Assembly: GCA_964596395.1 (NCBI GenBank)
Contig: CAZQSY010000001.1
Coordinates: 108,091-172,090 of the forward strand
Source of the DNA: an uncultured Candidatus Saccharibacteria bacterium
Lineage (GTDB): Bacteria > Patescibacteriota > Minisyncoccia > Phycocordibacterales > UBA9973
Direction: 5' to 3'
DNA: 64,000 nucleotides
The translations under genes and the position numbers were made by a program. This document shows, one piece after another, positions 1,971-56,735 of the stretch. Every line of letters begins with the position of its first letter. Within the stretch, counting starts at the first letter, position 1. The notes below the pieces were generated by a model. The model worked only from the letters and a program-made list of their open reading frames with translations, made no database searches and was not told the DNA's origin.

Positions 1971-2945
1971 TTATAAAAGGGGGCTGTTTTCCCGGGGCGT
2001 TTGCTGCTTTGACACTGCCGTCTCGGGCGCCGCCTGCGGAGAAACTAGGAAATACTGGCTCCATCTTTTTGACCCTGTCCGATAGAGAATTCTATCGGAC
2101 ACCATAGACACCAGTTCTCTTTGTAGTGTCTTTTCACTACATGAAACAAGCGTGTCCTTTGCATTATTTTTTATGTCCGTTATCGTCAAACCGACGGAAA
2201 CACCTCCGGTAATATTTTTTGATTTTATAATTGAAGTTATTTCTTCACGTCTTTTATTTTTTAAAGCATCAAAATTGTCGGCTTTTTCTTTAAGGACATG
2301 ACCTCCACGGTTTGAATTATTCAAATGAGAAGAAAGGTTATCGGACATCCTGACGCTCTTCAGAGCATTCACCAAAGTACTTCCCTTTTGGACACCAATA
2401 CTAGTTCCATGTCCTTTACCGGAAAATCCACCAATCGGAGGTACAACTCTGTCTATCATTCTAGAAACCGGCGACGCGGGCGATTTAAAATCTATTTCTA
2501 CCGAAGGCGCCGTAGTTAGAAAATCTTTCAGCCAAAGGTTGCTTTGTACAAAGTTTTTTTGTATCGATTCTCTCAAGGAAGAAAATTCTTTGGAGAGAAT
2601 TCCCGCGTTCATTTCGGATATCATTCCGACATCACGGCCTATGTCTAATAGAAACAAAACTTCCGTTATTCCGCTCTCAAAGTCCTTTAAATGCTCTCTG
2701 GAGCCAGACACTATGTCCGATAAAATTTTTATACCTAATTCTCTTAATTTTGTCCTTAATGGTTCATCGTAACGCATCATGTCCGTTACCATATATAACG
2801 CCGTAATAAGCTTGTTTGTTCTTATATAGTAGGCAGAGTAATCTGTCCGATACGGCATCAGGGAAACGGAAGAATTTGATGTGTCCTTTATAGAATCCTG
2901 AGGAGTGTCTTTTAGGTTTTTTTCCTCTGGTAACATTGTGTCCAT
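1971..2945 (-). CDS. Hypothetical protein
   Basis: ORF track 1971..3023; start moved to internal Met (MDTMLPEE...) at 2945 because the upstream 78 nt run into repeat element copy A; no recognisable motif. Confidence 0.4.
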   Translation of the reverse strand: MDTMLPEEKNLKDTPQDSIKDTSNSSVSLMPYRTDYSAYYIRTNKLITALYMVTDMMRYDEPLRTKLRELGIKILSDIVSGSREHLKDFESGITEVLFLLDIGRDVGMISEMNAGILSKEFSSLRESIQKNFVQSNLWLKDFLTTAPSVEIDFKSPASPVSRMIDRVVPPIGGFSGKGHGTSIGVQKGSTLVNALKSVRMSDNLSSHLNNSNRGGHVLKEKADNFDALKNKRREEITSIIKSKNITGGVSVGLTITDIKNNAKDTLVSCSEKTLQRELVSMVSDRILYRTGSKRWSQYFLVSPQAAPETAVSKQQTPRENSPLL

Positions 2946-2975
2946 TATATATAGGACAGCGAAAAACGCAAGCTG

Positions 2976-3089
2976 GGGGTTCCGCGAAGTTTGTGTTTTT
3001 TGAGCTGGTCTGGTTGAGCCCACACCTTTTAAAAATTACTGTGTGGGCGACCCGAGGACCCGAGAAAAATACAAACTTCGCGGAACCCC
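2976..3089. repeat. Nested inverted-repeat element, copy A (outer 19-bp perfect IR ggggttccgcgaagtttgt / acaaacttcgcggaacccc enclosing core gagctggtctggttgag-hairpin-cgacccgaggacccgagaaaaat)
   Basis: Outer IR 2976-2994 and 3071-3089 are exact reverse complements; core 3002-3070 has an internal hairpin cccacac...gtgtggg; the same termini recur at 5694-5779 and 21642-21734. Confidence 0.7.
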
Positions 3090-3110
3090 AAAGTGTGCTA
3101 AAATACGCGC

Positions 3111-5354
3111 ATGGCGAAAAAAATCTCGAAGTCCCTGGCTAAATCTTTCATGCCGGCAAGCAAGCTGAGAACCGAAACCAAACACGGAATTTTGGCAATT
3201 CTTTTTTTTGTTTTGGCTTTATTCCTTTTCATGTCTATGTTTGACTTCGGAGGCATCGCGGGAAAAAATATTTACGAATTTCTGGATTATTTTTTTGGCG
3301 TGGGGTACATCCTTCTGCCGACGGTTCTCATGCTGCTCGGCTACTCTTTCTTGAAATCCGAAACCCCCGACATCGGCTTGACCCGCGCGACAAGCGGAGT
3401 GCTCTTCATACTGTCGAGCTTGGGTCTGATAGACCTCGTGTCGCAAACGCATGCCGGCGGATTCTTAGGCAGAATACTTTCGGGTCCTCTATTTTATTTG
3501 TTTGACGTTTACGCCAGCATAATTTTTCTCGGCGCGCTTCTGCTCATTTCGATTTTCATGATGTTTGACGCCAAGCCCGATCTAGCGGGCATCGGCAGAA
3601 AAATCTGGGCCGCCCTGAAGGGCGAAAAACAGAAACCGCTGCCTCTGCCCGAAGAAGAACCGGCCGAGTATGAAACCGAAGAAGAATATGAAACAGAAGA
3701 AACAAAACCGGAAAAAGACAAAAACGGCATGAAGGAAAAAATAAAAAAAGCTCTGGCGATAAAAAGCGGCGACGAAGAGCCCGCCCGCCATGCTTCGCAA
3801 GGCGATGCGGGCGGGGAAGAAGACCTGCCGATAAAAAAAAGAAAAACAGTTTTCGGTTCGACCTATGTACCCCCTTCGCTCTCGCTCCTTGAAGAGGACC
3901 AGGGCAAGCCAAACACCGGCGACATCAAAGCAAACGCAAACATAATCAAACGCACACTGCAGAACTTCGGCATTGAGGTAGAGATGGATGAAATAACCAT
4001 CGGTCCCACCGTCACCCGCTACGCGCTGAAACCGGCCGAGGGAGTAAAACTCTCGCGCATCGTCGGCTTGCAAAATGACCTGGCGCTAGCGCTGGCCGCA
4101 CATCCTATTAGAATAGAAGCGCCGATACCGGGCAAATCGCTGGTGGGCATAGAGATACCGAACAAATCAAAATCCATAGTCGGGCTGGCCACGCTTCTCG
4201 CAGACGGCAAATTCCAAAATTCGCAGAAACCGCTCACGATGGCCCTGGGCCGAGGCATCTCGGGCAAGGCGATGTTCGGCAATCTGGCCAAGATGCCGCA
4301 CTGCCTGGTAGCCGGCACCACCGGTAGCGGAAAATCGGTAACGATTCATTCTATGATTACTTCCCTGCTCTACCGCAACGGACCGGATGACCTGAAATTC
4401 ATATTAATAGACCCGAAACGGGTGGAGCTGACTCTTTATAACAACATCCCGCATCTCCTGACTCCGGTCATAACCGACGCCAAGAAAACAATCCTGGCCC
4501 TGAAGTGGGCCGCCAAAGAAATGGACCGCCGCTATGACATACTTGAGGCCGAATCAGTACGGGATATAGAGTCGTACCATAGCAACGTCTTGGGCAAAAG
4601 CCCGAAGAAAACAAAAACCGACGAAAACGGCGAAGAGGTCACGGTGGATGCCGACCGCCTGCCCTACATAGTCATCGTCATTGACGAACTGGCGGATATA
4701 ATGAGCGCGTATCCGCGCGAACTCGAAGCGGCAATCGTGCGTTTGGCGCAAATGTCGCGCGCGGTGGGTATACACCTGGTGCTTTCTACCCAGCGCCCCG
4801 AAGTAAACGTCATTACCGGCCTCATCAAAGCAAACATACCGGCCCGGGTAGCACTGAAAGTTTCTTCACAAGTTGACTCGCGCACCATACTAGATGCCGG
4901 CGGCGCAGAGAAACTCTTGGGAGCCGGAGACATGCTGTACTCTTCGGGGGACGCCCAGCCCGAACGCCTGCAGAGTGCGTTTATTTCGGAACCGGAAGTG
5001 AAAAAAGTCGTAAAGTACCTGGTGGATTCGTACAAAGACGAACTCATGGATGAAATTTCTCTCACCTCCGGTTCAATATCCGCCGACAAAAGTATCTTTG
5101 AAAGCACTCTGGATGATGAAGATATCGACGGAGACAACGATGAAATGTACGAAGAAGCGAGGGCCTGCGTAATCGAGGCGGGCAAGGCCTCGACTTCGTA
5201 CCTGCAGAGAAAGTTGAAATTGGGCTACGCGCGCGCCGCCCGGCTTATGGATAAACTCGAAGAACGCGGGGTCATCGGCCCCGGCGAAGGAGCCAAGCCC
5301 AGAGAAGTGCTCGAAAAAATAACGCATGACGAAAACGGCGGCAATGTGATATGA
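3111..5354 (+). CDS. ftsK: DNA translocase FtsK/SpoIIIE
   Basis: N-terminal TM helices, acidic linker, Walker A GTTGSGKS, Walker B VIVIDELAD, C-terminal gamma winged-helix (KASTSYLQRKLKLGYARAARLMDKLEERGVIGP). Confidence 0.95.
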   Translation: MAKKISKSLAKSFMPASKLRTETKHGILAILFFVLALFLFMSMFDFGGIAGKNIYEFLDYFFGVGYILLPTVLMLLGYSFLKSETPDIGLTRATSGVLFILSSLGLIDLVSQTHAGGFLGRILSGPLFYLFDVYASIIFLGALLLISIFMMFDAKPDLAGIGRKIWAALKGEKQKPLPLPEEEPAEYETEEEYETEETKPEKDKNGMKEKIKKALAIKSGDEEPARHASQGDAGGEEDLPIKKRKTVFGSTYVPPSLSLLEEDQGKPNTGDIKANANIIKRTLQNFGIEVEMDEITIGPTVTRYALKPAEGVKLSRIVGLQNDLALALAAHPIRIEAPIPGKSLVGIEIPNKSKSIVGLATLLADGKFQNSQKPLTMALGRGISGKAMFGNLAKMPHCLVAGTTGSGKSVTIHSMITSLLYRNGPDDLKFILIDPKRVELTLYNNIPHLLTPVITDAKKTILALKWAAKEMDRRYDILEAESVRDIESYHSNVLGKSPKKTKTDENGEEVTVDADRLPYIVIVIDELADIMSAYPRELEAAIVRLAQMSRAVGIHLVLSTQRPEVNVITGLIKANIPARVALKVSSQVDSRTILDAGGAEKLLGAGDMLYSSGDAQPERLQSAFISEPEVKKVVKYLVDSYKDELMDEISLTSGSISADKSIFESTLDDEDIDGDNDEMYEEARACVIEAGKASTSYLQRKLKLGYARAARLMDKLEERGVIGPGEGAKPREVLEKITHDENGGNVI

Positions 5355-5704
5355 CCTTAAACGCGAAAAAGCTGCTAAAAATTGTTTCCTTCTCAGTGCT
5401 TATTCTCTTTGTGGCTATCTACGCTTTCTACCGCTCCAGAGACCTCGTCTTTGGAGTCAAAATAAAAAATGTGAACATAACCGACGGCGCAACAGTCATT
5501 GAAAAAGTCCTGCCGGTCGAAGGGAACGCCAGAAACGCCGTTTTGCTCGCGCTTGACGGCAGGGCCGTATCAATAGACGAAGAAGGCAATTTTAAAGAAG
5601 AAATCGCGCTCTTTTCGGGTTATAATGTAGTGAGTATAAAAGCGGTAGACAAGTTCGGCAATAGCGACGAAAAAAATTATAAGTTAGTGTTTATTCCGCG
5701 ATAA
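5351..5704 (+). CDS. Small membrane-anchored hypothetical protein (ATGA overlap with ftsK stop)
   Basis: 117 aa, one N-terminal TM helix (IVSFSVLILFVAIYAFY); the last codons FIPR plus the stop lie inside the outer IR of repeat copy B. Confidence 0.5.
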   Translation: MTLNAKKLLKIVSFSVLILFVAIYAFYRSRDLVFGVKIKNVNITDGATVIEKVLPVEGNARNAVLLALDGRAVSIDEEGNFKEEIALFSGYNVVSIKAVDKFGNSDEKNYKLVFIPR

Positions 5705-5779
5705 TTATATTTTTCTCGGGTCCTCGGGTCGGCCTCTCGGCCTCAACCAGACCAGCTCGAAAAACACAATTATCGTGGA
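5694..5779. repeat. Nested inverted-repeat element, copy B (inverted relative to copy A)
   Basis: Core atttttctcgggtcctcgggtcg-gcctctcggcc-tcaaccagaccagctc is the reverse complement of the copy-A termini; outer imperfect IR ttccgcgataattat (5694-5708) / acaattatcgtggaa (5765-5779). Confidence 0.65.
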
Positions 5780-5791
5780 ATCAGTAAAAAC

Positions 5792-6832
5792 ATGATTAAG
5801 AAAAAAGAAAAGGAAGAAAAAAAGAGCAATGATAGTTCTATGCTGGATGATACTTTGAAAGCCATTCAGGCCAAATTCGGAGAAGGGGCAATTATGAAAC
5901 TCGGCGAAACCCCGAAAGTCGACGTGAATACCATACCGACCGGCTCTATCGGTCTCGACATGGCGCTCGGCGTAGGCGGCATACCGCGTGGCAGAATCAT
6001 TGAAATCTTCGGACCGGAATCCTCGGGCAAAACCACCCTTTCGCTTCACATCGTGGCCGAAGCGCAAAAGCGCGGCGGAGTTTGCGCCTACATCGACGCC
6101 GAACACGCCATGGACCCTGAATACACTAAGAAGCTCGGAGTAAACATCGACCAGCTCTTGATTTCCCAGCCGGACACCGGAGAACAAGCGCTTGAAATTA
6201 CCGAAAGCTTGGTGCGCACCGGAAAAATCGACGTAATCGTGGTTGACTCGGTGGCAGCGCTGACACCCAAAGACGAAATCGAGGGAGACATGGGCGCATA
6301 TCATGTAGGCAAACAGGCCCGACTGATGTCTCAAGCGCTCCGTAAACTCACGGCCATCGTTGCGAGAAGTAAAACGGTAGTGATTTTCATAAACCAAATC
6401 CGCATGCAAATCGGCGTGATGTTCGGCAACCCCGAAACTACGCCGGGCGGCAAAGCGCTGAAATTCTATACTTCGGTTCGGTTAGACATTCGCAAAATCG
6501 CGCAGATTAAGAAGGGTGAAGATGTAGTCGGCAGCCGCACGCGCGTGAAAGTGGTGAAAAACAAAGTCGCCGCGCCGTTCAAACAGACAGAATTTGATAT
6601 TATTTACAATGAAGGCATTTCTAAAGAGGGTGAAATGATGGCCCTAGGAGAAAAATTCAAAATCATAGAAAAAACCGGGAACTCCTATTCATACAAACCC
6701 GAGAACGGGGAAAAAGTGAAGCTGGGGGTCGGCTACGACTCTACCCGCACCTTTCTCAAAGCCAAAGAAAACGCAAAGCTGGCCGAGCAAATCCTGAAAG
6801 ACATCCGCAAAAAATTCGCGGAAGAAGCGTAA
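5792..6832 (+). CDS. recA: Recombinase RecA
   Basis: [21 protein letters not shown] Walker [10 protein letters not shown]2-loop region; Lys-rich N-terminal extension, true start may be Met at about 5840. Confidence 0.95.
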
Positions 6833-17536: not shown

Positions 17537-18118
17537 CTAAAGATGTGTTTCTTTCAGAGCGCTGTTTATTTCGCGAAGTATCCGCGCCCTGTTCTTCGAG
17601 GCCTCAAAAATCAAATTCTCTTCAAACGGCGACTCGGTGAGGTTGCCGATGGCCTCATTGCCTCCGCCTATGTACCCCAGCTTGTGTAAAATACGCAGCA
17701 CTATCACCGCTTCGACGCTGCCTGTTTCTTGCGGCATCGCCGATTTTTCCAAAACGCGCAACCCGCTCAAAATATCTCCGAACAAAGCCGGGTTCGGGTC
17801 CTCACCCGGCAAGAGCCGTATCAAAAGCTTCGCGATGTTCCCCATTGTCGGCAAAATTTCGGGCGCGAGCAGGCCGCAAAGCTCGTTCGTCTTTGAAGCA
17901 CTGCCTATGCGCCAGAAATCTTTCCCTTTTACCAGGTCAATCTTCACATAAGAGAAATCCTGAAGCACATAACGCAATTTTGAAGACATTTTGCGCACGC
18001 CCGAGGCCGTAGCCAAGACCAACCCCAAATCGCGGGTGCACAAGCGGTAATATTTGCCGGTCTCGCCAAAATTTCTGCTCCCCAAAACTATGCCCTCGGT
18101 GTGATAAATGTGATGCAT
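17537..18118 (-). CDS. recO: DNA repair protein RecO (short form)
   Basis: N-terminal OB-fold region EGIVLGSRNFGETGKYYRLCTRDLGLV resembles RecO; 193 aa. Confidence 0.6.
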   Translation of the reverse strand: MHHIYHTEGIVLGSRNFGETGKYYRLCTRDLGLVLATASGVRKMSSKLRYVLQDFSYVKIDLVKGKDFWRIGSASKTNELCGLLAPEILPTMGNIAKLLIRLLPGEDPNPALFGDILSGLRVLEKSAMPQETGSVEAVIVLRILHKLGYIGGGNEAIGNLTESPFEENLIFEASKNRARILREINSALKETHL

Positions 18119-18121
18119 GCG

Positions 18122-18153
18122 TTACATAATCTATTACGTAATAGATTATGTAA
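18122..18153. promoter_or_regulatory. 32-bp perfect palindrome ttacataatctattacg|cgtaatagattatgtaa, 4 bp upstream of the recO start codon
   Basis: Exact self-complementarity checked base by base; sits in the 39-bp gap between the HD-domain gene and recO. Confidence 0.5.
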
Positions 18154-18157
18154 CTAA

Positions 18158-18817
18158 TTATATAACGAAATCCCGGAGTTCTTCTATTATTGGCTTGACT
18201 GTCTCGTCGTTTATATCTTCCGGCTTGATTTTGCACTTCGCGAAAATTTGCTTTTCAATGTTTCTCAGCGACTCACACAGGGGCTCAAAATTATCTGTCG
18301 CGATGGCGTGATTCAATTCTTTTATTCTTGCCAAGTATCTCTTTCTGCCTTCCTGAATACGCTCTCCCATAGAAACCACGCCGTGCGGGCTAACCCTCAT
18401 ATCTGAATAATTGGTAATTTTCTCCGCGAAAGACCCGCTTTGTTCAACCTCCGCGGCCTTAGAAAACCCCAGATTTTCAAGAAACATTCCGATCCCTCCC
18501 GAGACCCCCATCTCTTCAGCTATTAGTTTCGTGGCCAGATACTCGTCCGCGCCATATTTTCTCACATATTCATCTTTAACCTTTTGCCAATGTTCCAGCC
18601 CTTCCGGCTCCAGGAACTCCGGGAAGGCATTTAGATTGAACTTGATTATATTTCCCATATCATGAAGCAAACATGCCGTAACAATTTCCTGTCTTGGTAA
18701 GACCTCATCGAAATTTTCGCAAACCAAATACGCCACCGCCGCCACACGTAGCATGTGCTCCTGCAAACTAGGCATAATCTTATACTCTTCGTAAATTTCA
18801 GTGATTTTTCTTGCCAC
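18158..18817 (-). CDS. HD-domain phosphohydrolase
   Basis: H...HD signature (LQEHMLRVA ... LLHDMGNIIKF). Confidence 0.6.
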   Translation of the reverse strand: MARKITEIYEEYKIMPSLQEHMLRVAAVAYLVCENFDEVLPRQEIVTACLLHDMGNIIKFNLNAFPEFLEPEGLEHWQKVKDEYVRKYGADEYLATKLIAEEMGVSGGIGMFLENLGFSKAAEVEQSGSFAEKITNYSDMRVSPHGVVSMGERIQEGRKRYLARIKELNHAIATDNFEPLCESLRNIEKQIFAKCKIKPEDINDETVKPIIEELRDFVI

Positions 18818-21800
18818 TTATTTATTTTGGAGAATTTTTACCTTAAAAGCAAGGTCGCCTGCTTTTACTTCCTGGCCATCGTTTTTCTCCAGTTTCAAAT
18901 TTGACACAAGAACGGTCTTCAGCAGTTCCGGCTCAAATTTTTTCACCAGTTCTTCCCCATTCTTTTCTGTCTCAATATAAAGCGTTATCGAATCTTTCGG
19001 CGTAAGTCCCATATCTTTGCGCATGTCCTGCAAAGCCCGCACAAGCTCGCGAAAATCGCCTTCGGCTTTGAGTTCCGGAGTAATTTCCGTCCAGAGCAAG
19101 ATATTTTCGTCAATGTTGGTGCCCTCAACAACCTCTTTCACATTAAGTTCGTCTTTGACTAAATCAAGATATTCGCCGTCCAACTTTGAATCTTTCCATA
19201 TCTCTATTTTAGCTAACGGCTGCCTAACTTTTATTTTTTCATACTGCCGGCGCTCTAATCCGAGAGTGACTATCTTGCGAACTGTTTTCATTTTTTCCAA
19301 GACCTCTTTATCGCCAAACCGGAAAAACTTAAAACCTGCCTTAGGCCACTCGGCTAGATGCACACTTTCAGCTTCTTTTTCGTTTTTCAATTTCTGCCAG
19401 ATATCTTCAGCTGTAAACGGCGCGAAGGGAGCCAAGAGCTTCACTAAATTTTTCAAGACAAGATACAAGGTCTGTTTTGCTTCTTTGTCGCCTTCTTTCA
19501 TCCTATCCCTTGAGCGACGCAAATACCAAGTAGAAAGGTCTTCAATAAAATCCCGAACGCCCCGCACCGGCTCAAGTAATCTGTAATTTTCCAAACTTCG
19601 GGTAACAAGCTCGGTCAACTCGTCCATTCTCGCTAAAATCCATTTATCCAAAACATCGCCCGATTTCGGCTGGCTGTTTTTCTCGACCGAAGTGTCGCGG
19701 TAAAGTTCGTAGAACGCGAGAATATTGTAAAGCAGTCCGAAGACCTGCTGATGCAAGAGACGCACGGTTTTCTCGTCAAAATTTTTGGATTCGCCCGGCT
19801 GGTTGACTGAATACATCCATAGGCGAAGCGTATCAGCGCCGTATTTTTCTATCATTTCCCACGGGTCGACAATGTTGCCCAATGACTTCGACATTTTTTT
19901 GCCCTGCGCGTCGAGCAAATGCCCGAGGCAAATCACGTTTTTGTACGCCTTACCTCGGCCCATTAAAATCCCGACTGCGTGCAATGTGTAAAACCACCCG
20001 CGCGTCTGGTCTATGGCTTCAGAAATGTAATCGGCCGGGTATCCGGCACCTTCTACCCATTTCTTGCTTTCGAACGGGTAATGGTCCTGCGCGAAAGGCA
20101 TGGCACCCGAATCAAACCACACGTCCATCACTTCTTTCACTCGCTTTAAATCGCCCCCGCACTCGCAGACAACTTCCGTTTCGTCAATGTACGGTCTATG
20201 AAAATCAAGTTCGAAATCTTTATTGTGCGGAAGCGGAACAAAAGGAAACTCGGTAAATTCAGAGAATCCCACAGGCGGAATTGACGCTTCAAGTTCTCTG
20301 ATGGTTTCCTCGTCATTTAACCCAAGTGCACCAGCGACAATCAGTCTGCGTGGACCTTCGTGGGTAACGATGAGTATGTTTTCATTCTTGTATTTTTTGT
20401 CTATGTCGTAGAGAAAATTGGAAACTCTAAGTTTTACATCTCTCTGCGTTTCACTTCCATCCGTATCAAGAAAATATCTTTTTTCTCCGGTTTTATCCCC
20501 CCAAAATTCCCGCCATGTTCTACCCTTGAAACTGCCGGTGAATATCTCACGCAAACGTTTATCAAAAACAAGTTTGTCCTGCGGTAAGTCAAGCTCTTTC
20601 AAAATTATTTCCGCCGTCTCTTTGGTTCTCAAAAAATCTGAAGATATCATAAGAGTGATATCTTCTTTCCTCAGTTTCCGAGCCGAATCGAGTGCCTGCT
20701 TTTTACCCTCTTCGGTCAAATGGTCGTTGTCGCTTTCAATTTTGTTGCTTATGAGCCCCTTCAAATTCGCCTCGGCTTGCGCGTGTCGTATCGCGAAGTA
20801 TTTATTGCCGGATTTTTTGGTTTTTTCTTTCAGTTCTTCCAAACTGCCGATGACTTCTCTCTTATGGCATTTCTCGCATTCCCATACCGGAAGGGGCGTA
20901 CCCCAGTACCGCTCGCGCGAAATTGCCCAATCTTTAATCTCTCTTAGCCATTCGCCGAAGCGTCCTTCGCGTATGTGCGCCGGCTCCCAATTTATTTTCT
21001 CGTTTTCTTTTATGAGCTCATCCCTCAACTTTGACATTCCGATATACCAGGAATCGCGGGCGTAATATATGAGCGCGGTCTTACATCGCCAGCAGTACGG
21101 GTATGAGTGCTCGTATTTTTCTTTTTTCAAAAGTAGACCCCGGTGCGCCAAATCTTTGATAATCTCAACCGCGGTTTCTTCATCTCGGGTAAAACGCCCT
21201 TCCAGGAATCCTGTCCCCGACAGAAACTTTCCATCCAAACCTACCAGGTGATGCTTCGGCAGACCGATTTTCGTACCCAGCTCAAAGTCATCTTGGCCGT
21301 ACATCACGGCGGTATGCACCACACCGGTACCGTCTTCGGTCGTCACGAAATCAGCAGGATACACCTTGTATGCTTTTTCTAATTTAGGTTTCTCGCTTTC
21401 GGATATAACATTTTGCAAAAACGGATAAAGCGGCTCGTACTCAAGGCCGATTAAATTTTTTCCCTTTAGTTTTTCCAAAACCTGATACTCGCCTTGAATT
21501 TCCTGCAATCTTTTTTCCGCCAGTATTAAAACTTCATTTTCTTTTTTAATTTTTACGTAATCAATATCTTCCCCCACCGCGAGCGCGACGTTGCCCGGCA
21601 ACGTCCATGGTGTCGTCGTCCAAGCAAGAATGTAAAGCGGAGCCGCGGAATGATTTTCGAGTGTCTGGTTGAGGCCGTTCTTTGCCGAACTTTCTGCACG
21701 GCCGACCCGAGGACCGAGAAAATCATTCCGCGGCGAAGCGATAATTTTAAACTTTACGTAGACCGACAAGTCCTTCACATCCTGGTACCCCTGCGCGAGC

Positions 21801-22384
21801 TCGTGCGAAGAAAGAGCCGTGCCGCAACGCGGGCACCAGGGCACCACTTTGTAGTCCTTGTATAAAAGTCCCCGTTCGTTTACTTTCTTTACGATGTTCC
21901 AAAGCGATTCAATGTAGTCATTGTGATAAGTAACGTACGGATTCTCCTGGTCAACCCAATAGCCAATACGCTCGGTAAACTTGTTCCAGAATTCCAGATA
22001 CTCCCAAACGCTTTCTTTGCATTGCTGATTAAATTTCGCGATGCCATACTCCTCGATTGCTTTTTTTGAATCAAGCCCGAGCTTTTTCTCAACCTGCAGT
22101 TCCACCGGCAAGCCGTGCGTGTCCCACCCGCCTTTTCGGCGCACATGGCATCCGCGCATGGTCTTGTACCGAGGGATGGCATCTTTGAAAGCGCGAGCTT
22201 CGAGGTGGTGAATACCCGGCTTGCCATTGGCTGTCGGCGGGCCTTCATAAAAAACGAACTCCTTTCTGCCCTCGGTTTGCTTTACCGATTTTTCAAAAAT
22301 TTTATTCTCTTTCCAAAATTCCAAAATCCGTTCTTCACGTATCGTCGCTTCACATTTTTCGATTTTTTTGCTTTCCTCGTTCAT
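18818..22384 (-). CDS. ileS: Isoleucyl-tRNA synthetase with two insertions (31-aa repeat-element-derived segment; about 190-aa histidine phosphatase domain)
   Basis: HIGH-type motif PTANGKPGIHHLEAR, WTTTPWTLPGN (CP1 start), KMSKSLGNIVDP; 1188 aa, oversized because of the insertions. Confidence 0.95.
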   Translation of the reverse strand: MNEESKKIEKCEATIREERILEFWKENKIFEKSVKQTEGRKEFVFYEGPPTANGKPGIHHLEARAFKDAIPRYKTMRGCHVRRKGGWDTHGLPVELQVEKKLGLDSKKAIEEYGIAKFNQQCKESVWEYLEFWNKFTERIGYWVDQENPYVTYHNDYIESLWNIVKKVNERGLLYKDYKVVPWCPRCGTALSSHELAQGYQDVKDLSVYVKFKIIASPRNDFLGPRVGRAESSAKNGLNQTLENHSAAPLYILAWTTTPWTLPGNVALAVGEDIDYVKIKKENEVLILAEKRLQEIQGEYQVLEKLKGKNLIGLEYEPLYPFLQNVISESEKPKLEKAYKVYPADFVTTEDGTGVVHTAVMYGQDDFELGTKIGLPKHHLVGLDGKFLSGTGFLEGRFTRDEETAVEIIKDLAHRGLLLKKEKYEHSYPYCWRCKTALIYYARDSWYIGMSKLRDELIKENEKINWEPAHIREGRFGEWLREIKDWAISRERYWGTPLPVWECEKCHKREVIGSLEELKEKTKKSGNKYFAIRHAQAEANLKGLISNKIESDNDHLTEEGKKQALDSARKLRKEDITLMISSDFLRTKETAEIILKELDLPQDKLVFDKRLREIFTGSFKGRTWREFWGDKTGEKRYFLDTDGSETQRDVKLRVSNFLYDIDKKYKNENILIVTHEGPRRLIVAGALGLNDEETIRELEASIPPVGFSEFTEFPFVPLPHNKDFELDFHRPYIDETEVVCECGGDLKRVKEVMDVWFDSGAMPFAQDHYPFESKKWVEGAGYPADYISEAIDQTRGWFYTLHAVGILMGRGKAYKNVICLGHLLDAQGKKMSKSLGNIVDPWEMIEKYGADTLRLWMYSVNQPGESKNFDEKTVRLLHQQVFGLLYNILAFYELYRDTSVEKNSQPKSGDVLDKWILARMDELTELVTRSLENYRLLEPVRGVRDFIEDLSTWYLRRSRDRMKEGDKEAKQTLYLVLKNLVKLLAPFAPFTAEDIWQKLKNEKEAESVHLAEWPKAGFKFFRFGDKEVLEKMKTVRKIVTLGLERRQYEKIKVRQPLAKIEIWKDSKLDGEYLDLVKDELNVKEVVEGTNIDENILLWTEITPELKAEGDFRELVRALQDMRKDMGLTPKDSITLYIETEKNGEELVKKFEPELLKTVLVSNLKLEKNDGQEVKAGDLAFKVKILQNK
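21642..21734. repeat. Nested inverted-repeat element, copy C, inserted in frame (93 nt) in ileS
   Basis: Perfect 16-bp outer IR gccgcggaatgatttt (21642-21657) / aaaatcattccgcggc (21719-21734); core gagtgtctggttgag ... ggccgacccgaggaccgagaaaat matches the copy-A termini; on the minus strand it encodes SPRNDFLGPRVGRAESSAKNGLNQTLENHSAA. Confidence 0.65.
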
Positions 22385-31031: not shown

Positions 31032-31625
31032 ATGAAAAAATTTGAAGAAGCAAAATTTGAAATCGGCGAGCTCGCGGGTATTTCGAAGAAAAATATAGAA
31101 GAGCATTTGAAACTTTACTCGGGGTATGTGAAAAATGCCAACTTAATACTGGAGAAAATAGTGGAGCTAGCGCAAGATTCAGAAAAAAACGCTTACGCTT
31201 TGGGGGAAATTCAAAGAAGGTTTGGTTTTGAATACAACGGCATGCGAAACCACGAAGTTTATTTTGATTCTCTTTCCGACGGAGCGCAGTCCCTCGGAGA
31301 AAATAGCGAACTCAAGAAAGCAATCGTAGAAGAGTGGGGCTCGTTTGACGTGTGGCTTGCCCGATTCAAAGCTGTGGCGCTCACGCGCGGCATCGGCTGG
31401 GCCATGCTTTACTACGACAAAAAAGACGGAAGATTGCTTACGACTTGGGTGGATGAACAGCACTTGGGGCAACTCCAGGATTGCGCCCTGATACTGGGAC
31501 TCGACATGTGGGAACACGCATACGTCTATGATTACCCGACCTCGGAGAAGAAAAAATACGTGGAGGCATTTTTTGAAAATCTGAATTGGGAGAGCGCGGA
31601 GAAAAATTTCCTAAATGTAAAATAA
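31032..31625 (+). CDS. Fe/Mn superoxide dismutase-like protein
   Basis: DMWEHAYV (D/H metal ligands), NHEVYF (His ligand), N-terminal helical hairpin with a single His (IEEHLKLY) where HHxKHH is usual. Confidence 0.8.
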   Translation: MKKFEEAKFEIGELAGISKKNIEEHLKLYSGYVKNANLILEKIVELAQDSEKNAYALGEIQRRFGFEYNGMRNHEVYFDSLSDGAQSLGENSELKKAIVEEWGSFDVWLARFKAVALTRGIGWAMLYYDKKDGRLLTTWVDEQHLGQLQDCALILGLDMWEHAYVYDYPTSEKKKYVEAFFENLNWESAEKNFLNVK

Positions 31626-31635
31626 AAAATCGAGA

Positions 31636-31712
31636 AAAGGTTTTTAAGGGGTTTGGCGAGCGACGGCGAGCCAATTTCAGGAATTTTTAAGCTTCAAAAA
31701 TTCCGTACCGAC
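31636..31712. repeat. GC-rich palindromic intergenic module (host form, no nested inserts)
   Basis: ggggtttggcgagcgacggcgagccaatttcaggaatttttaagcttcaaaaattccgtacc; 9-bp stem ggaattttt/aaaaattcc; the same scaffold recurs at 56736-56862 with two inserted palindromes; outer IR atcgagaaaaggttttt / aaaaaccttattctcgat. Confidence 0.5.
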
Positions 31713-31719
31713 AAAAACC

Positions 31720-33246
31720 TTATTCTCGATTTTTTATCTCAAGGAGAAAGCTTTTCGCATTTCCCCCAAAAAGCTTGTAAGCAAACCAAGCGTATACGGC
31801 CATTGTCAGCACTAGAGGAAATTCTGGAATAGAGAGCGAAGCGAAAGGAACTCGCGCGAAAAAATTTACTACGGACATTTCGTAATGAAGTAAGAGATAC
31901 GACATGAAACCGAAAGGAACGGAAGCAAAATACCAAATTAACCCGGCGAATCCGGCAATAAAACCAAAACCCATGGTGAAAGGAATGAGCGGCAAAATCA
32001 AGACGTTGGCCGGCAATGCCACCAGCGAAAGGCTGCCCATTTTGTAAAGTATGAAAGGCAGAACAAAAATATAAACGGCAGTAGTAATAGAGAAAATTTC
32101 CCGCAGGCCGAAATAGGGCGTGACCCACTCAAAATATTTTTCAACTTTCGGAGCAAAAAATATCACCGCGACAGTGGCTAAGAAGGAAAGCTGAAAAGAT
32201 ACGTCAAAACGCAAAATGAAAGGGTTCCAGAGTACCATGACGATGCCTGCCAGAAGAAGCGCCCGGCCGGCATCATAGCCCCTGCCTGAAACTTTCGCGA
32301 AAAGAGAAATTACCGCCATCACCCCCGCTCGCACCGCGGTAGAAGGAGCGCCGGTCATGAGCACGAACAAAAATATGGAAAACATGCCGGCCCCCGCCGC
32401 CCATCCCATAGGCAAAAAAGAGAAAAATTTCATGAACCACTTGGCGACAATCATGATGTTGTAGCCGGAAAGAGCGACAATGTGTATCGTACCTGTTGAG
32501 ACGAGATTCTCCCGAAAAGATTCTTCAAACGAGGCCTTTTCACCTAAAATAAGGCCGGCCATGAGCAGAGATTCTGGTTCTCGAATGGCTTGATTTATTT
32601 TTTCGGAAAATTTTTCTTTGACGGAAAATAAAATTTCTTTCACCTTGTTCCCATCCCCACGCGAAATTATTTCAGCATCCGGATACTTCATCAGGTAAAA
32701 AATCCCGTCCTTGCGCAAGTAATTCACATAATCAAATTCTTTACCTTGGTCGGTTATGAAATTTTCCGGCTTTTTTAAAACTCCTTTTATATCCAATTTA
32801 TCTCCGTACTTAGAATTATTTTCCAGCCCTACTGTAACTAAAATTCTTGTTTTGAAACCTTTTTCTTCGGCTTCCACGATAAATTTCTGATTATTTTCGG
32901 CCACGTTCGGCTCATCGGCAATTTCACCGGTCAAAGAAACTCTCTGGCCTACTTTTGATTCGAAAAACTCCGGCACAGGCCTATCCGCAACGCTAAATCT
33001 CCAAATCCCAAAACAGAAAAGCAGAACAAAAACCGAAATTAAAACCCCTATTTTATTCTTGGAAACAAAAGTAAAAAACAAGAGCAGTGCAAAAGCTAAG
33101 ACCCCAAATAAAATAACAACGTGTAAATTCACAAAAACACCTGCCTCGCCGGCACCTGCCTGTCCGGTAGGCAGGGGCAGGAAAGAGCGCACAAGCACTC
33201 CCAGGATAAAACCCGCGCAAGCCGAGTAAAAAATTTTATCTTGCAT
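31720..33246 (-). CDS. comEC: ComEC/Rec2 competence channel protein (N-terminal OB/DUF4131 + competence domain, no MBL domain)
   Basis: Polytopic membrane protein; HIVALSGYNIMIV competence-domain signature; ends before any MBL motifs. Confidence 0.85.
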   Translation of the reverse strand: MQDKIFYSACAGFILGVLVRSFLPLPTGQAGAGEAGVFVNLHVVILFGVLAFALLLFFTFVSKNKIGVLISVFVLLFCFGIWRFSVADRPVPEFFESKVGQRVSLTGEIADEPNVAENNQKFIVEAEEKGFKTRILVTVGLENNSKYGDKLDIKGVLKKPENFITDQGKEFDYVNYLRKDGIFYLMKYPDAEIISRGDGNKVKEILFSVKEKFSEKINQAIREPESLLMAGLILGEKASFEESFRENLVSTGTIHIVALSGYNIMIVAKWFMKFFSFLPMGWAAGAGMFSIFLFVLMTGAPSTAVRAGVMAVISLFAKVSGRGYDAGRALLLAGIVMVLWNPFILRFDVSFQLSFLATVAVIFFAPKVEKYFEWVTPYFGLREIFSITTAVYIFVLPFILYKMGSLSLVALPANVLILPLIPFTMGFGFIAGFAGLIWYFASVPFGFMSYLLLHYEMSVVNFFARVPFASLSIPEFPLVLTMAVYAWFAYKLFGGNAKSFLLEIKNRE

Positions 33247-45078: not shown

Positions 45079-45090
45079 TCATTTTATAAC

Positions 45091-45165
45091 AGAAAACTAA
45101 AAAAGCATATCTCTAGAAATTCGTACCCTAGAAAAGATATGCTTTTTAGTTTTCTGTTGAGTTAG
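45091..45165 (-). other. Long near-perfect hairpin (about 28-bp arms) between the giant surface protein gene and pilB
   Basis: aacagaaaactaaaaaagcatatctctag ... ctagaaaagatatgctttttagttttctgtt; arms complementary except for a 1-nt indel and 2 mismatches; loop aaattcgtacc. Confidence 0.55.
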
Positions 45166-56424: not shown

Positions 56425-56655
56425 ATGGAACCAGAAAAAAAATCCAACGGCGCGCTTATCGGGGTGATAGTCATAATCCTCATCCTCGTGCTCGGCGGCA
56501 TATATATATGGCAGTCCAAGGTGGCCAAGGCGCCAAGCGACACTCTCACCGAGGAACCCACGACCGAGGACTCAAACGAGCTTCAGAACCTGGAACAGGA
56601 ACTCAACACCACCGATGTTGAAATCGGGGCCAGCGTAATAGAGAGCGTGCAGTAA
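56425..56655 (+). CDS. Small single-pass membrane protein
   Basis: 76 aa, TM helix LIGVIVIILILVLGGIYIW, acidic C-terminal tail; followed by a strong terminator. Confidence 0.4.
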   Translation: MEPEKKSNGALIGVIVIILILVLGGIYIWQSKVAKAPSDTLTEEPTTEDSNELQNLEQELNTTDVEIGASVIESVQ

Positions 56656-56670
56656 AAAATACCAGAATAC

Positions 56671-56703
56671 AAAATCCCCCGCTTAAGGCGGGGGATTTTG
56701 TAT
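56671..56703 (+). terminator. Rho-independent terminator aaatcccccgc-ttaag-gcgggggattt + U-run
   Basis: 11-bp perfect stem, 5-nt loop, then tgtattt. Confidence 0.7.
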
Positions 56704-56735
56704 TTAGACGAAACTCGTTGAGGCATAGCTTAAAA

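Follow-up and report, generated by a model that had tools for sequence, protein, structure and literature searches.

Patescibacteria have very small genomes and are thought to carry little mobile DNA. Small repeats with hairpin structure have been described from other prokaryotes, and several of these are relevant here. MITEs are characterised by conserved terminal inverted repeats; target-site duplications are usually seen as well, as is an insertion sequence from which the MITE is derived. REPINs are REP doublets which are mobilised by RAYT tyrosine transposases of the Y1 HUH type, and the cognate RAYT is usually flanked by repeats. The attC sites of integrons are imperfect palindromes that are recognised as a folded single strand, in which extrahelical bases set the choice of strand and the stem is closed at its base by the R''/R' core sites (RYYYAAC / GTTRRRY). 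The RPEs of Rickettsia are not known to have an associated transposase. RPEs are found between genes and also, with unusual frequency, in frame in unrelated housekeeping genes, where the protein gains a peptide at a position that tolerates it, and each RPE family has one conserved peptide and is read in one frame (PMC10969869). For Correia elements, either orientation is possible (PMC10969869). REPINs have two short conserved sequences in inverted orientation, separated by a variable spacer; they are predicted to fold into a hairpin as ssDNA or RNA, and are non-autonomous, multi-copy and lineage-specific (PMC3116915).

The window, i.e. the whole 64-kb stretch of DNA that was analysed, contains three copies (A, B and C, Table 1) of a nested hairpin repeat. 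Copy A is located in the divergent spacer between a gene coding for 324 aa (reverse strand, start codon at 2945) and ftsK (forward strand, ATG at 3111), and copy B is found between a small ORF and recA. According to a preliminary description, two inverted copies with different central stems bracket ftsK and the small ORF. This was borne out by sequence comparison, with boundaries shifted slightly, so that the ATG of recA (5792) is found 10 nt past the end of copy B (13 nt with the earlier end point). The last codons (FIPR) and the stop codon of the small ORF had been placed inside copy B; I-P-R and TAA are indeed inside, while the F codon is just outside.

Table 1. Coordinates of the hairpin elements and of associated features in the window.
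Feature	Position	Strand	Remarks
Copy A, whole nested hairpin	2976-3089	+	114 nt; 100.9 bits with model R1
Copy A, 5' arm	2976-3001	+	paired with 3064-3089 in the minimum-free-energy structure; inverted repeat I3
Copy A, conserved core, 5' half GAG-CTGGTCTGGTTGAG	3002-3018	+	same sequence in copy B
Copy A, variable apical hairpin	3019-3047	+	CCCACAC / 15-nt loop / GTGTGGG; covaries family-wide
Copy A, conserved core, 3' half CGACCCGAGGACC-CGA	3048-3063	+	
Copy A, 3' arm	3064-3089	+	from repeat search and folding
Extended -10 box of ftsK, TGcTAAAAT, native	3096-3104	+	ends 6 nt before the ATG; outside the element
Copy B, whole nested hairpin	5693-5781	-	89 nt; 95.8 bits; orientation opposite to copy A
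Last three codons (I-P-R) and TAA stop of the small ORF (5351-5704)	5693-5704	+	from copy B
Copy C, diverged family member	21642-21734	+	covariance model, 72 bits; next match in the window 19 bits

The asymmetric core is the same in copies A and B and reads TTTTYGAG-CTGGTCTGGTTGAG-(variable hairpin)-CGACCCGAGGACC-CGAGAAAA. The core halves GAGCTGGTCTGGTTGAG and CGACCCGAGGACCCGAGAA each occur exactly twice in the window, with 0.03 and 0.01 occurrences expected. The central stems are unlike (CCCACAC...GTGTGGG in copy A, GCC-GAGA-GGC in copy B). The core is enclosed by long arms which differ in sequence, pairing being kept via compensatory changes. In copy A, the outer inverted repeat is 25 nt long and 96% complementary. 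Folding results in -67.7 kcal/mol (z = -10.9) for copy A and -44.0 kcal/mol (z = -7.4) for copy B. A repeat search detected inverted arm pairs between A and B of 42 nt (86%) and 41 nt (88%). Among 76 copies, the arms of A and B are mutual best matches (26 of 34 positions), and the next-best matches (19-20 positions) come from copies that lie upstream of ftsK at the orthologous site. As the arms are mutual best matches, copy B has most probably been copied from copy A, or the reverse. Arms which are common to A and B also indicate that arms travel with the element, and on this basis an origin of the arms from the target by inverted duplication was rejected, for which the alignment at the recJ site was ambiguous.

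The core pattern was found at 32 loci in 24 species-representative genomes (185,579 species genomes scanned) and in 67 metagenome contigs/loci, with several copies per genome or contig; some of these copies are orthologous, and the counts are not independent. Groundwater sites (Hainich, Rifle) are among the sources of the contigs. None of the viral contigs matched. Nearly all of the genomes with matches are labelled as Patescibacteria, Nomurabacteria or Paceibacterota. The elements have a length of 80-159 bp (median 108 bp) with arms of 17-49 nt. Copies A, B and C belong to a lineage-specific, non-coding family of nested-hairpin repeats of Patescibacteria (Paceibacteria/Nomurabacteria). A literature search revealed no description of such an element for CPR/Patescibacteria, and this family of hairpin repeats of about 100 bp is seemingly undescribed.

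Part of the core, CTGGTCTGGTTGA, is identical in all 75 distinct copies, which is partly imposed by the method as the genome and metagenome searches required an exact core; CTGGTCTGGTTGA was fixed in the pattern, apart from two positions which could be either pyrimidine (Y) in the metagenomes. Unconstrained bases flanking this part are also near-invariant (GAG in 73 of 75 copies, the final G in 75 of 75). The two core halves are imperfectly complementary and enclose the variable apical hairpin; their pairing contains fixed wobbles and bulges as well as a tandem G·A mismatch. A kink-turn at the tandem G·A loop was considered and rejected, as a canonical k-turn would need a longer bulge or a bulge on the other strand. 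In a search against Rfam 15, nothing reached the gathering score in the whole window, and noise alone was seen at E = 10 or below for positions 2900-5900; SRP RNA, riboswitches and other Rfam families were rejected for lack of a match. Upon folding, a single common fold was obtained for all copies, with compensatory changes at 23 of the 34 consensus pairs. In L023, the isolated pair of the core has changed from G-C to A-U. For the polA site, where 18 distinct copies were folded, there are compensatory changes at 24 of 41 pairs. Even at this site, which is shared by many species, the core shows 100% conservation, and about 90% of the arm pairs are of the Watson-Crick type. In decaying selfish relics the level of conservation is usually lower, and such high conservation could be due to gene conversion that is still going on or to a function for the host.

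The element also has a strand signature. Pairs of the G·T type are more frequent than pairs of the A·C type both in the arms (63 vs 21) and in the apical stems (34 vs 8), as counted from a strand-symmetric arm alignment. The excess of G·T wobbles over A·C mismatches, about 3:1, is on one fixed strand whatever the direction of the neighbouring gene (16:5 for copies in sense to genes, 45:18 for antisense copies, 28:6 for others). The second T of GGTT, a wobble position, was fixed as T in the genome scan; in the metagenome scan, where either pyrimidine (Y) was allowed, no copy has C. We infer from these sequence patterns that it is a single strand of the element which folds, and that a structure-specific enzyme recognises the element via the asymmetric core. 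As the favoured strand is independent of the direction of host transcription, ssDNA is more likely than RNA.

Long ORFs contain 29 of the 75 distinct copies (39%); the frame is kept in all 29 cases and none introduces a stop codon. The affected genes are polA, ligA, recJ, uvrD, leuS, mnmA and rsmA and, for copy C, ileS, with PolA, LigA, RecJ, MnmA and RsmA having been confirmed by Pfam. At least four frame/orientation combinations occur within genes, so that the core is translated as RVLGSP...QPDQL, LGSSGRP...LNQTS, GPRVA...LNQTS or AGLVEP...TRGP. Copies outside of genes fill short intergenic spacers. No gene was found to be split by the element, and the ORFs beside ten sampled intergenic copies are complete and distinct. 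RNA-level excision as an intron-like hairpin was also considered and rejected, as all in-gene copies are in frame and stop-free and no split gene was found.

Copy C has the core GAG-TGTCTGGTTGAG ... CGACCCGAGGAC-CGAG. It is in frame within ileS (18818-22384, reverse strand), where it encodes about residues 215-251, and the stretch encoded by it corresponds to a gap between two aligned blocks in the comparison with IleRS from T. thermophilus (1ile). In the IleRS from the window, a predicted peptide is IASPRNDFLGPRVGR. Other examples of predicted element-encoded peptides are FSRVLGSPAQ and GLNQTSS. A protein-database search with element-encoded peptides gave no candidate with three shared 5-residue words and was uninformative.

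The element resembles RPEs and REPINs, but it does not qualify as a MITE in the strict sense, nor as a REP, RPE or attC site. With RPEs it has in common that palindromic repeats of about 100-150 bp occur in a reduced genome, both between genes and in frame within ORFs. This likeness is one of description and concerns a different phylum. In addition, the core from Patescibacteria is read in several frames and orientations and yields no single peptide, and conservation is confined to the asymmetric core in the centre, with arms that vary and covary. As in REPINs, the core halves represent imperfect inverted copies around a variable apical hairpin, and the strand-specific wobbles would agree with a folded single strand being recognised. 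However, REPINs are extragenic while 39% of the copies from Patescibacteria are in ORFs, REPs form the ends while here variable arms of 17-49 nt are found outside the conserved halves, and no RAYT/Y1_Tnp domain was detected within the 64-kb window.

The preliminary description had suggested that the elements may be MITE-like insertions. This fits in so far as the element is small, non-coding, multi-copy and present or absent at orthologous sites, as are Correia elements and other bacterial MITEs such as ERIC, BOX and QMITE, with which it also shares that copies can lie beside gene starts, supply gene ends or make in-frame fusions. It does not fit with respect to conserved termini and to a parent element, which was not found in 816 kb of loci: the termini are the least conserved part and differ completely, while the conserved part is central. 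With attC sites the element shares an imperfect palindrome with a variable apical part. In this case the layout was found to be wrong by inspection, and an integron attC was rejected: the base of the stem varies, GTTGAGC, which is similar to GTTRRRY, is near the apex without a matching inverse box, long variable arms are found below, and there is neither a cassette array nor an integrase nearby.

Empty sites were found in the closest relatives for copy B, and in the window itself for recJ. The site of copy B is empty in L034, L036, the P0025 contig and L038, with gene order unchanged; in these relatives the small ORF overlaps recA or is 2-36 nt apart from it, and the ORF ends differ. RecJ from the window is devoid of a 36-aa insert which is present in RecJ from L023 (64% identical). 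In the ftsK - small ORF - recA region, elements are found at different junctions in different genomes. The polA site is occupied in either orientation, and in relatives the site upstream of ftsK can hold an element of a different family. Neither direct repeats nor a target-site duplication are visible at A, B or the 75 copies; the empty sites, with about 63% protein identity, are too diverged for exact breakpoints. Among the copies analysed, none was caught in mid-transposition and no near-identical pair was seen at distant loci. According to the preliminary description, absence of further copies and of empty sites would point to a conserved regulatory structure rather than a mobile repeat. 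Both exist, as the repeat is dispersed and empty sites occur, and this favours a mobile repeat.

We consider it rather likely that A, B and C represent a mobile, lineage-specific family of nested hairpins which is copied as a whole and survives in spacers and as in-frame linkers or loops. The unit copied to new places would be the whole hairpin including its arms. Copies would persist where they are harmless, which may be in short intergenic spacers or, if the frame is kept and the copy can be translated through, in linkers and loops of proteins. A copy in a spacer may replace the last codons and the stop codon of a gene, as copy B does. Copy B has most probably originated from copy A (or the reverse), 2.7 kb apart and inverted, and this event would have separated the small ORF from recA. 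More tentatively, the hairpins may be more than selfish DNA in decay and may constitute a hairpin system not recognised before, either a new type of mobile DNA, moved as a folded single strand by an enzyme that reads the asymmetric core, or a nucleic-acid signal of the host, in which the structure is actively maintained even within polA, ligA, ileS, leuS and recJ.

The functions initially suggested for A and B around ftsK were not upheld. The motif TAAAAT, attributed to copy A, is present at 3099-3104, but this is 10 nt outside of the copy. The extended -10 box TGcTAAAAT is conserved in L034, L036 and L038, all without a type-1 element at that site, and the box is native to ftsK rather than a promoter donated by copy A. 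A donated terminator is contradicted by a scan of both strands, which detected no terminator-like site or U tract at A or B, and no donated promoter either; the sequences flanking the stems are AAAGTG and TAAACA. It is highly improbable that A and B delimit a segment of 2.7 kb which is inverted by recombination between the two copies, so as to flip ftsK and the small ORF as a switch. The copies are inverted and have perfect runs of 17 nt and 24 nt in common inside their arm matches (86-88%), but gene order and orientation of the window are ancestral, being found in four relatives without the pair; ftsK and the small ORF keep their orientation with respect to their flanks in relatives without elements. 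The only independent assembly of the copy-B junction, from a separate read set, agrees with the window. Inversion would separate ftsK from its conserved native promoter, and in other genomes the two elements either point the same way or are located at other junctions. There is thus no sign of an inversion; if A and B recombine at all, they may do so only rarely.

Two further alternatives invoke a host function. We consider it unlikely that the element is a DNA cruciform or hairpin that serves the host and is bound by a chromosomal protein, for example in nucleoid organisation, as a recombination/repair hotspot or in DNA uptake, with copies being selected in place and mobility being secondary or extinct. 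This would fit with the invariant core and with the pairing kept across many species at an orthologous site (polA), but the apparent conservation is inflated by the exact-core search, the polA site accepts either orientation, and the site upstream of ftsK accepts a different family. Close relatives differ in that some sites are occupied and some are empty. The wobble position, on the other hand, has never turned into a stronger C-G pair, and the window codes for competence proteins, ComEC and type IV pilus components. Many hosts or neighbours function in genome maintenance (polA, ligA, recJ, uvrD, recA, ruvA, xerC, xth, ftsK), which may represent an enrichment relative to the gene content of these very small genomes. 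Quite unlikely is also a structured RNA, either an sRNA or a cis-acting mRNA element, which is bound by an RNA-binding protein or RNase from Patescibacteria, with the internal loops (tandem G·A, G·U pairs) being recognised and the variable arms representing closing helices. Of the 55 copies scored for orientation, 40 have the favoured strand antisense to the surrounding genes; this holds for 25 of the 29 in-gene copies and, in co-directional spacers, for 15 copies vs 11 sense copies. Some sense copies are in operon spacers such as dnaK-dnaJ and rpsB-tsf. An excess of G·U on one strand would be consistent with RNA, but the wobble bias is equal in both orientations. Conserved internal loops between covarying helices are typical of functional RNAs and the apical loop GAGA of copy B is of the GNRA type; however, there is no Rfam family even at E = 10 or below, arms and flanks vary so that there is no conserved promoter, and there is no terminator. 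Moreover, cis regulation leaves the in-frame copies in unrelated essential genes unexplained.

If the family is mobile, as we prefer, an enzyme has to be sought. No transposase domain was detected in the 55 ORFs from the window that were scanned, and tblastn of the examined loci with an approximate IS200 TnpA query gave no match, which is a weak test. One weak match to Y1_Tnp was seen in a gene at the edge of the relative L034. An autonomous parent was not found in 816 kb of loci, where the core halves are always within 80 nt; the few orphan matches to a core half in these loci are in tRNA genes or due to chance. Orientation with respect to replication or transcription shows no clear bias that would fit a transposase acting on the lagging-strand template. 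The three copies from the window are oriented +, - and + within one apparent replichore, from which we drew no inference.

The family would represent a second, independent case of what is seen with RPEs in Rickettsia, again in a reduced genome. Its spread through intergenic spacers and genes would add 30-40 residues to essential enzymes and give rise to lineage-specific inserts in proteins. What is unusual about the layout is that the asymmetric core is invariant, the arms covary freely and one fixed strand is favoured; this layout provides a concrete sequence for finding the recognising protein. For annotation, the element explains odd gene ends, spacers and unaligned inserts in proteins from Patescibacteria, and it can be searched for as a lineage marker. 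A second, unrelated core family has the same layout, with a variable outer stem around a conserved centre. It is found in the window (31617-31742) and also upstream of ftsK in relatives, and it may point to a general mechanism in these genomes.

Copy A and copy B, the two repeats around ftsK, had been recognized in the preliminary description as one element in opposite orientation, and this holds. The repeat finder pairs their arms (the outer stem strands) in inverted orientation over 42 nt at 86% and 41 nt at 88%, and copy A has an outer inverted repeat of its own of 25 nt (96% complementary). Read in one orientation, both copies have an exactly identical core, the conserved asymmetric centre with two halves enclosing an apical hairpin. 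The core halves GAGCTGGTCTGGTTGAG and CGACCCGAGGACCCGAGAA have 2 exact matches each in the 64 kb, with chance expectations of 0.03 and 0.01. Differences within the arms are compensatory changes, and the apical hairpins are distinct, as had been described (CCCACAC/15-nt loop/GTGTGGG in copy A, GCC-GAGA-GGC in copy B). Each copy folds into one long hairpin (copy A: -67.7 kcal/mol, z = -10.9; copy B: -44.0 kcal/mol, z = -7.4; versus shuffled controls), and because of G·U pairs in the core the strand reading GAGCUGGUCUGGUUGAG is more stable than its complement by 9-10 kcal/mol in both. The small ORF indeed ends inside copy B, which contains its last three codons and stop (5693-5704), and the recA ATG (5792) follows 10 nt beyond copy B.

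A census had been called for, and scans across species revealed further copies. The pattern CTGGTCTGGTTGA-N6-36-GACCCGAGGACC was run against 185,579 species, each represented by a single genome, resulting in 32 loci from 24 genomes. Almost all of these carry the label Patescibacteria, Nomurabacteria or Paceibacterota, and several of the genomes hold multiple copies. Another 67 loci were obtained from metagenomes with two core positions left free, one of them a wobble position, and viral contigs gave no match to the core pattern. Once duplicates were removed, 75 distinct copies remained whose flanks are complete. With 36 copies as input, a covariance model detected a third copy in the window, copy C in ileS; the runner-up in the window scores 19 bits.

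All copies have a common fold, with arms of 17-49 nt and a total length of 80-159 nt (median 108). From the arms inward, the core consists of a tandem G·A/A·G mismatch, one G-C pair, a CU bulge, a helix GGUCU/GGACC including a U·G pair, a CGA bulge, a helix GGUU/GACC again including a U·G pair, and a GA bulge, followed by the variable apical hairpin. Compensatory double changes occur at 23 of the 34 pairs of the consensus structure, and in L023, one of the compared loci, the isolated core G-C pair has become A-U. At the wobble position freed for the metagenome scan, the second T in GGTT, no metagenome copy has C, which would give the stronger pair. In several loci the covariance model also picks up a variant core, called type-2 (TGAATGGTCTGGCCGGG...CCCGGAGAACCGAGGACCTGA). 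It retains GGTCTGG and CCGAGGACC, and its reverse complement has GGTCCTCGGTTC in common with the T-arm region of one tRNA gene (present in L010, L029 and L055), which may be a coincidence or a hint about origin. No tRNA genes are found in the window.

Coordinates of repeats, genes and hairpins in the window and in compared loci (L-numbers)
Feature	Location	Position	Strand	Remark
Gene of unknown function	window	1971-2945	-	324 aa
Copy A	window	2976-3089	+	
ftsK	window	3111-5354	+
Small ORF	window	5351-5704	+	117 aa; weak Glucodextran_B-like domain
Copy B	window	5693-5781	-	same element as copy A, opposite strand
recA	window	5792-6832	+
efp, ssb, rpsF	window	downstream of recA
ileS	window	18818-22384	-	1188 aa
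Copy C	window	21628-21748		covariance model, 72 bits
Type-2 core	L003	3183-3289
Type-2 core	L020	3616-3721
Type-2 core	L038	5896-6002
Type-2 core, in uvrD	L031	6970-7075
Type-1 element (family of copies A and B), in uvrD	L031	6067-6181
Weak match, in uvrD	L031	4785-4895
Second family	window	31617-31742		between convergent sodA and comEC
Second family	L036	3655-3800
Second family	L038	3500-3600
Hairpin	window	18107-18168		z = -4.6
Hairpin	window	45082-45164		z = -9.5
Hairpin	window	56655-56715		z = -8.3

Long ORFs contain 29 of the 75 copies, with the frame kept, 25 antisense and 4 sense to the gene. Hosts are PolA, LeuRS, LigA, RecJ, UvrD, MnmA and RsmA (Pfam-confirmed for PolA, LigA, RecJ, MnmA and RsmA). 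At PolA the site is the linker that follows the 5' nuclease domain, with both orientations represented. Copy C encodes IleRS residues ~215-251 (IASPRNDFLGPRVGRAESSAKNGLNQTLENHSAAPLY), which are exactly the unaligned gap in the match to T. thermophilus IleRS (query 16-214 and 252-524 versus chain residues 13-211 and 224-482). The same protein has a His_Phos_1 histidine-phosphatase domain (residues 531-693) inserted within the synthetase, and in L031 a single uvrD gene apparently has as many as three in-frame family members. At least four frame/orientation combinations are used in translating the core (RVLGSP...QPDQL, LGSSGRP...LNQTS, GPRVA...LNQTS, AGLVEP...TRGP), and thus it is the nucleic acid that is conserved, not a peptide. 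The antisense strand of the core is free of stop codons in all frames, which partly explains the antisense excess; the sense strand has TGA in one or two frames. As no gene split by an element was found, it appears that in-gene copies are translated, not removed. The remaining 46 copies are in short spacers between complete and distinct genes, usually 0-20 nt from each neighbour (e.g. dnaK|dnaJ, rpsB|tsf, rodA|folD, ruvA|rpsT, xerC|xth, ftsK|small ORF|recA).

The closest relatives, found via the small ORF (63-64% identity), retain the order (-)gene | ftsK | small ORF | recA | efp, and they provide empty sites. At the junction between small ORF and recA, where the window has 87 nt due to copy B, the two genes overlap in L034 and are separated by 2 nt in L036, 5 nt in the related contig P0025 and 36 nt in L038, all unoccupied. 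Family members do occur at this junction in L008, L020 and L027, and between ftsK and the small ORF in L020, L038 and L041. Upstream of ftsK there is no hairpin in L034, while the hairpin in L036 and L038 (in opposite orientations) belongs to another family; L041, L098 and L103 have both a member of that other family and a type-1 element. The window RecJ, 64% identical to that of L023, is without exactly the 36 residues added there by the element. This mosaic looks like gain and loss of an insert. L004 and L008 (JAMPXW01) are ~270-kb contigs labelled as a Burkholderiales MAG that carry the element in a Patescibacteria-type context (recA plus small ORF); this bin is probably mislabelled or contaminated.

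The proposal that the copies donate promoter or terminator functions finds no support. A scan of copies A and B detected nothing promoter-like or terminator-like, and the TAAAAT at 3099-3104 belongs to an extended -10 box (TGcTAAAAT, 3096-3104) which is kept in L034, L036 and L038, none with a type-1 element there, and is thus native. With 6 nt between the end of this box and the ftsK ATG, the ftsK mRNA is probably leaderless; a Shine-Dalgarno sequence is absent from 3096-3113. In the relatives, where small ORF and recA abut or overlap, the two are presumably co-transcribed; copy B now parts them with no new promoter or terminator signature. A candidate operator or promoter element is the palindrome TGTCC-ATTATATATA-GGACA (2939-2958), which shares positions with the start codon of the divergent gene (324 aa) and is likewise kept in L034 and L036.

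We consider it probable that the family is a non-autonomous hairpin repeat that would move as a whole by duplication and would be tolerated in spacers and protein linkers. When the arms of all copies were compared, leaving out the T/A run adjoining the core, those of copies A and B were reciprocal best matches (26 of 34 positions), followed by copies upstream of ftsK, at the orthologous site, in other genomes (19-20). Arms thus travel together with the core, and by this ranking the orthologous copy A probably predates copy B, which in turn is probably a local duplicate of it, inserted 2.7 kb away and inverted. The same arms are combined with different apical modules also in other genomes, which, together with the differing apices of A and B, suggests exchange between copies via the identical core halves. 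That copies A and B instead serve as recombination substrates for inversion of the ftsK segment is very improbable: ftsK and small ORF are in the ancestral orientation, as judged from the relatives, an independent assembly of SRR15237813 shows the identical copy-B junction, and inversion would part ftsK from its conserved promoter.

A purely selfish nature is disfavoured by the invariant core, with the reservation that exact-core searches inflate apparent core conservation, and by arms that remain ~90% Watson-Crick paired; both hold even for polA, a site that many species have in common, where 24 of 41 pairs covary. These data speak for a host-functional DNA site, which we nevertheless regard as unlikely; pairing could possibly be upheld by host-function selection, by repeated re-invasion or by template-switch correction of quasi-palindromes. 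A structured RNA is improbable, as Rfam gave no match (whole window at gathering score; 2900-5900 at E <= 10) and there is no conserved promoter. Wobble pairs were counted using an arm alignment scored alike for both strands. G·T-type pairs exceed A·C-type pairs in arms (63 vs 21) and apical stems (34 vs 8), and in copies sense (16 vs 5) or antisense (45 vs 18) to neighbouring genes or in other contexts (28 vs 6); by element, 38 copies show a G·T-type and 10 an A·C-type excess, counts that include orthologues and are thus not independent. With the bias alike in every context, it is the core, rather than host transcription, that determines the favoured strand, which argues against mRNA selection and transcription-linked mutation bias. 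This fits folding of one particular single strand, either ssDNA or RNA made independently of host genes, with ssDNA being likelier as there is no conserved promoter. RAYT on REP sequences and TnpA on IS200/IS605 ends recognize a folded single strand in a structure-specific manner. Tentatively, a comparable enzyme might read the hairpin repeat through its asymmetric core; no candidate was encountered among the window ORFs scanned or by crude tblastn.

In behaviour, the hairpin repeat most resembles the palindromic elements of Rickettsia, whose insertions into unrelated housekeeping genes are in frame (PMC10969869), but it has no single reading frame. Structurally, REPINs come closest, with two conserved sequences in inverted orientation that enclose a spacer and form a hairpin in ssDNA or RNA (PMC3116915), but the hairpin repeat is not confined to extragenic space. 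The suggested MITE-like nature is borne out with respect to multiple copies and their gain and loss at orthologous sites, but termini are not conserved and no target duplication is visible. Unlike attC, the stem base is without R boxes. The repeat thus departs in a defining trait from each of MITEs, REP/REPINs, Rickettsia palindromic elements and attC sites and matches no Rfam family, and we found no description of such an element in the literature on CPR/Patescibacteria.

A second, unrelated nested-hairpin family has a variable outer stem around two inner hairpins that are conserved: one is GAGCGCGACGGCGCGAG, which reads GGCGAGCGACGGCGAGCC in the window, the other GGAATTTTT-AGC-AAAAATTCC. Its exact motif occurs in 14 compared loci, often directly 5' of ftsK and in either orientation; besides those tabulated, members are found in L018, L019, L027, L041, L098, L100 and L103. 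Three further intergenic hairpins are long and near-perfect: that at 56655-56715 resembles a terminator of the classical G+C-rich type, and the remaining two are palindromes rich in A+T. The minimum of the cumulative GC skew, at ~44-46 kb, and a switch in gene orientation at ~52 kb suggest a replication origin near 45-52 kb of the window.
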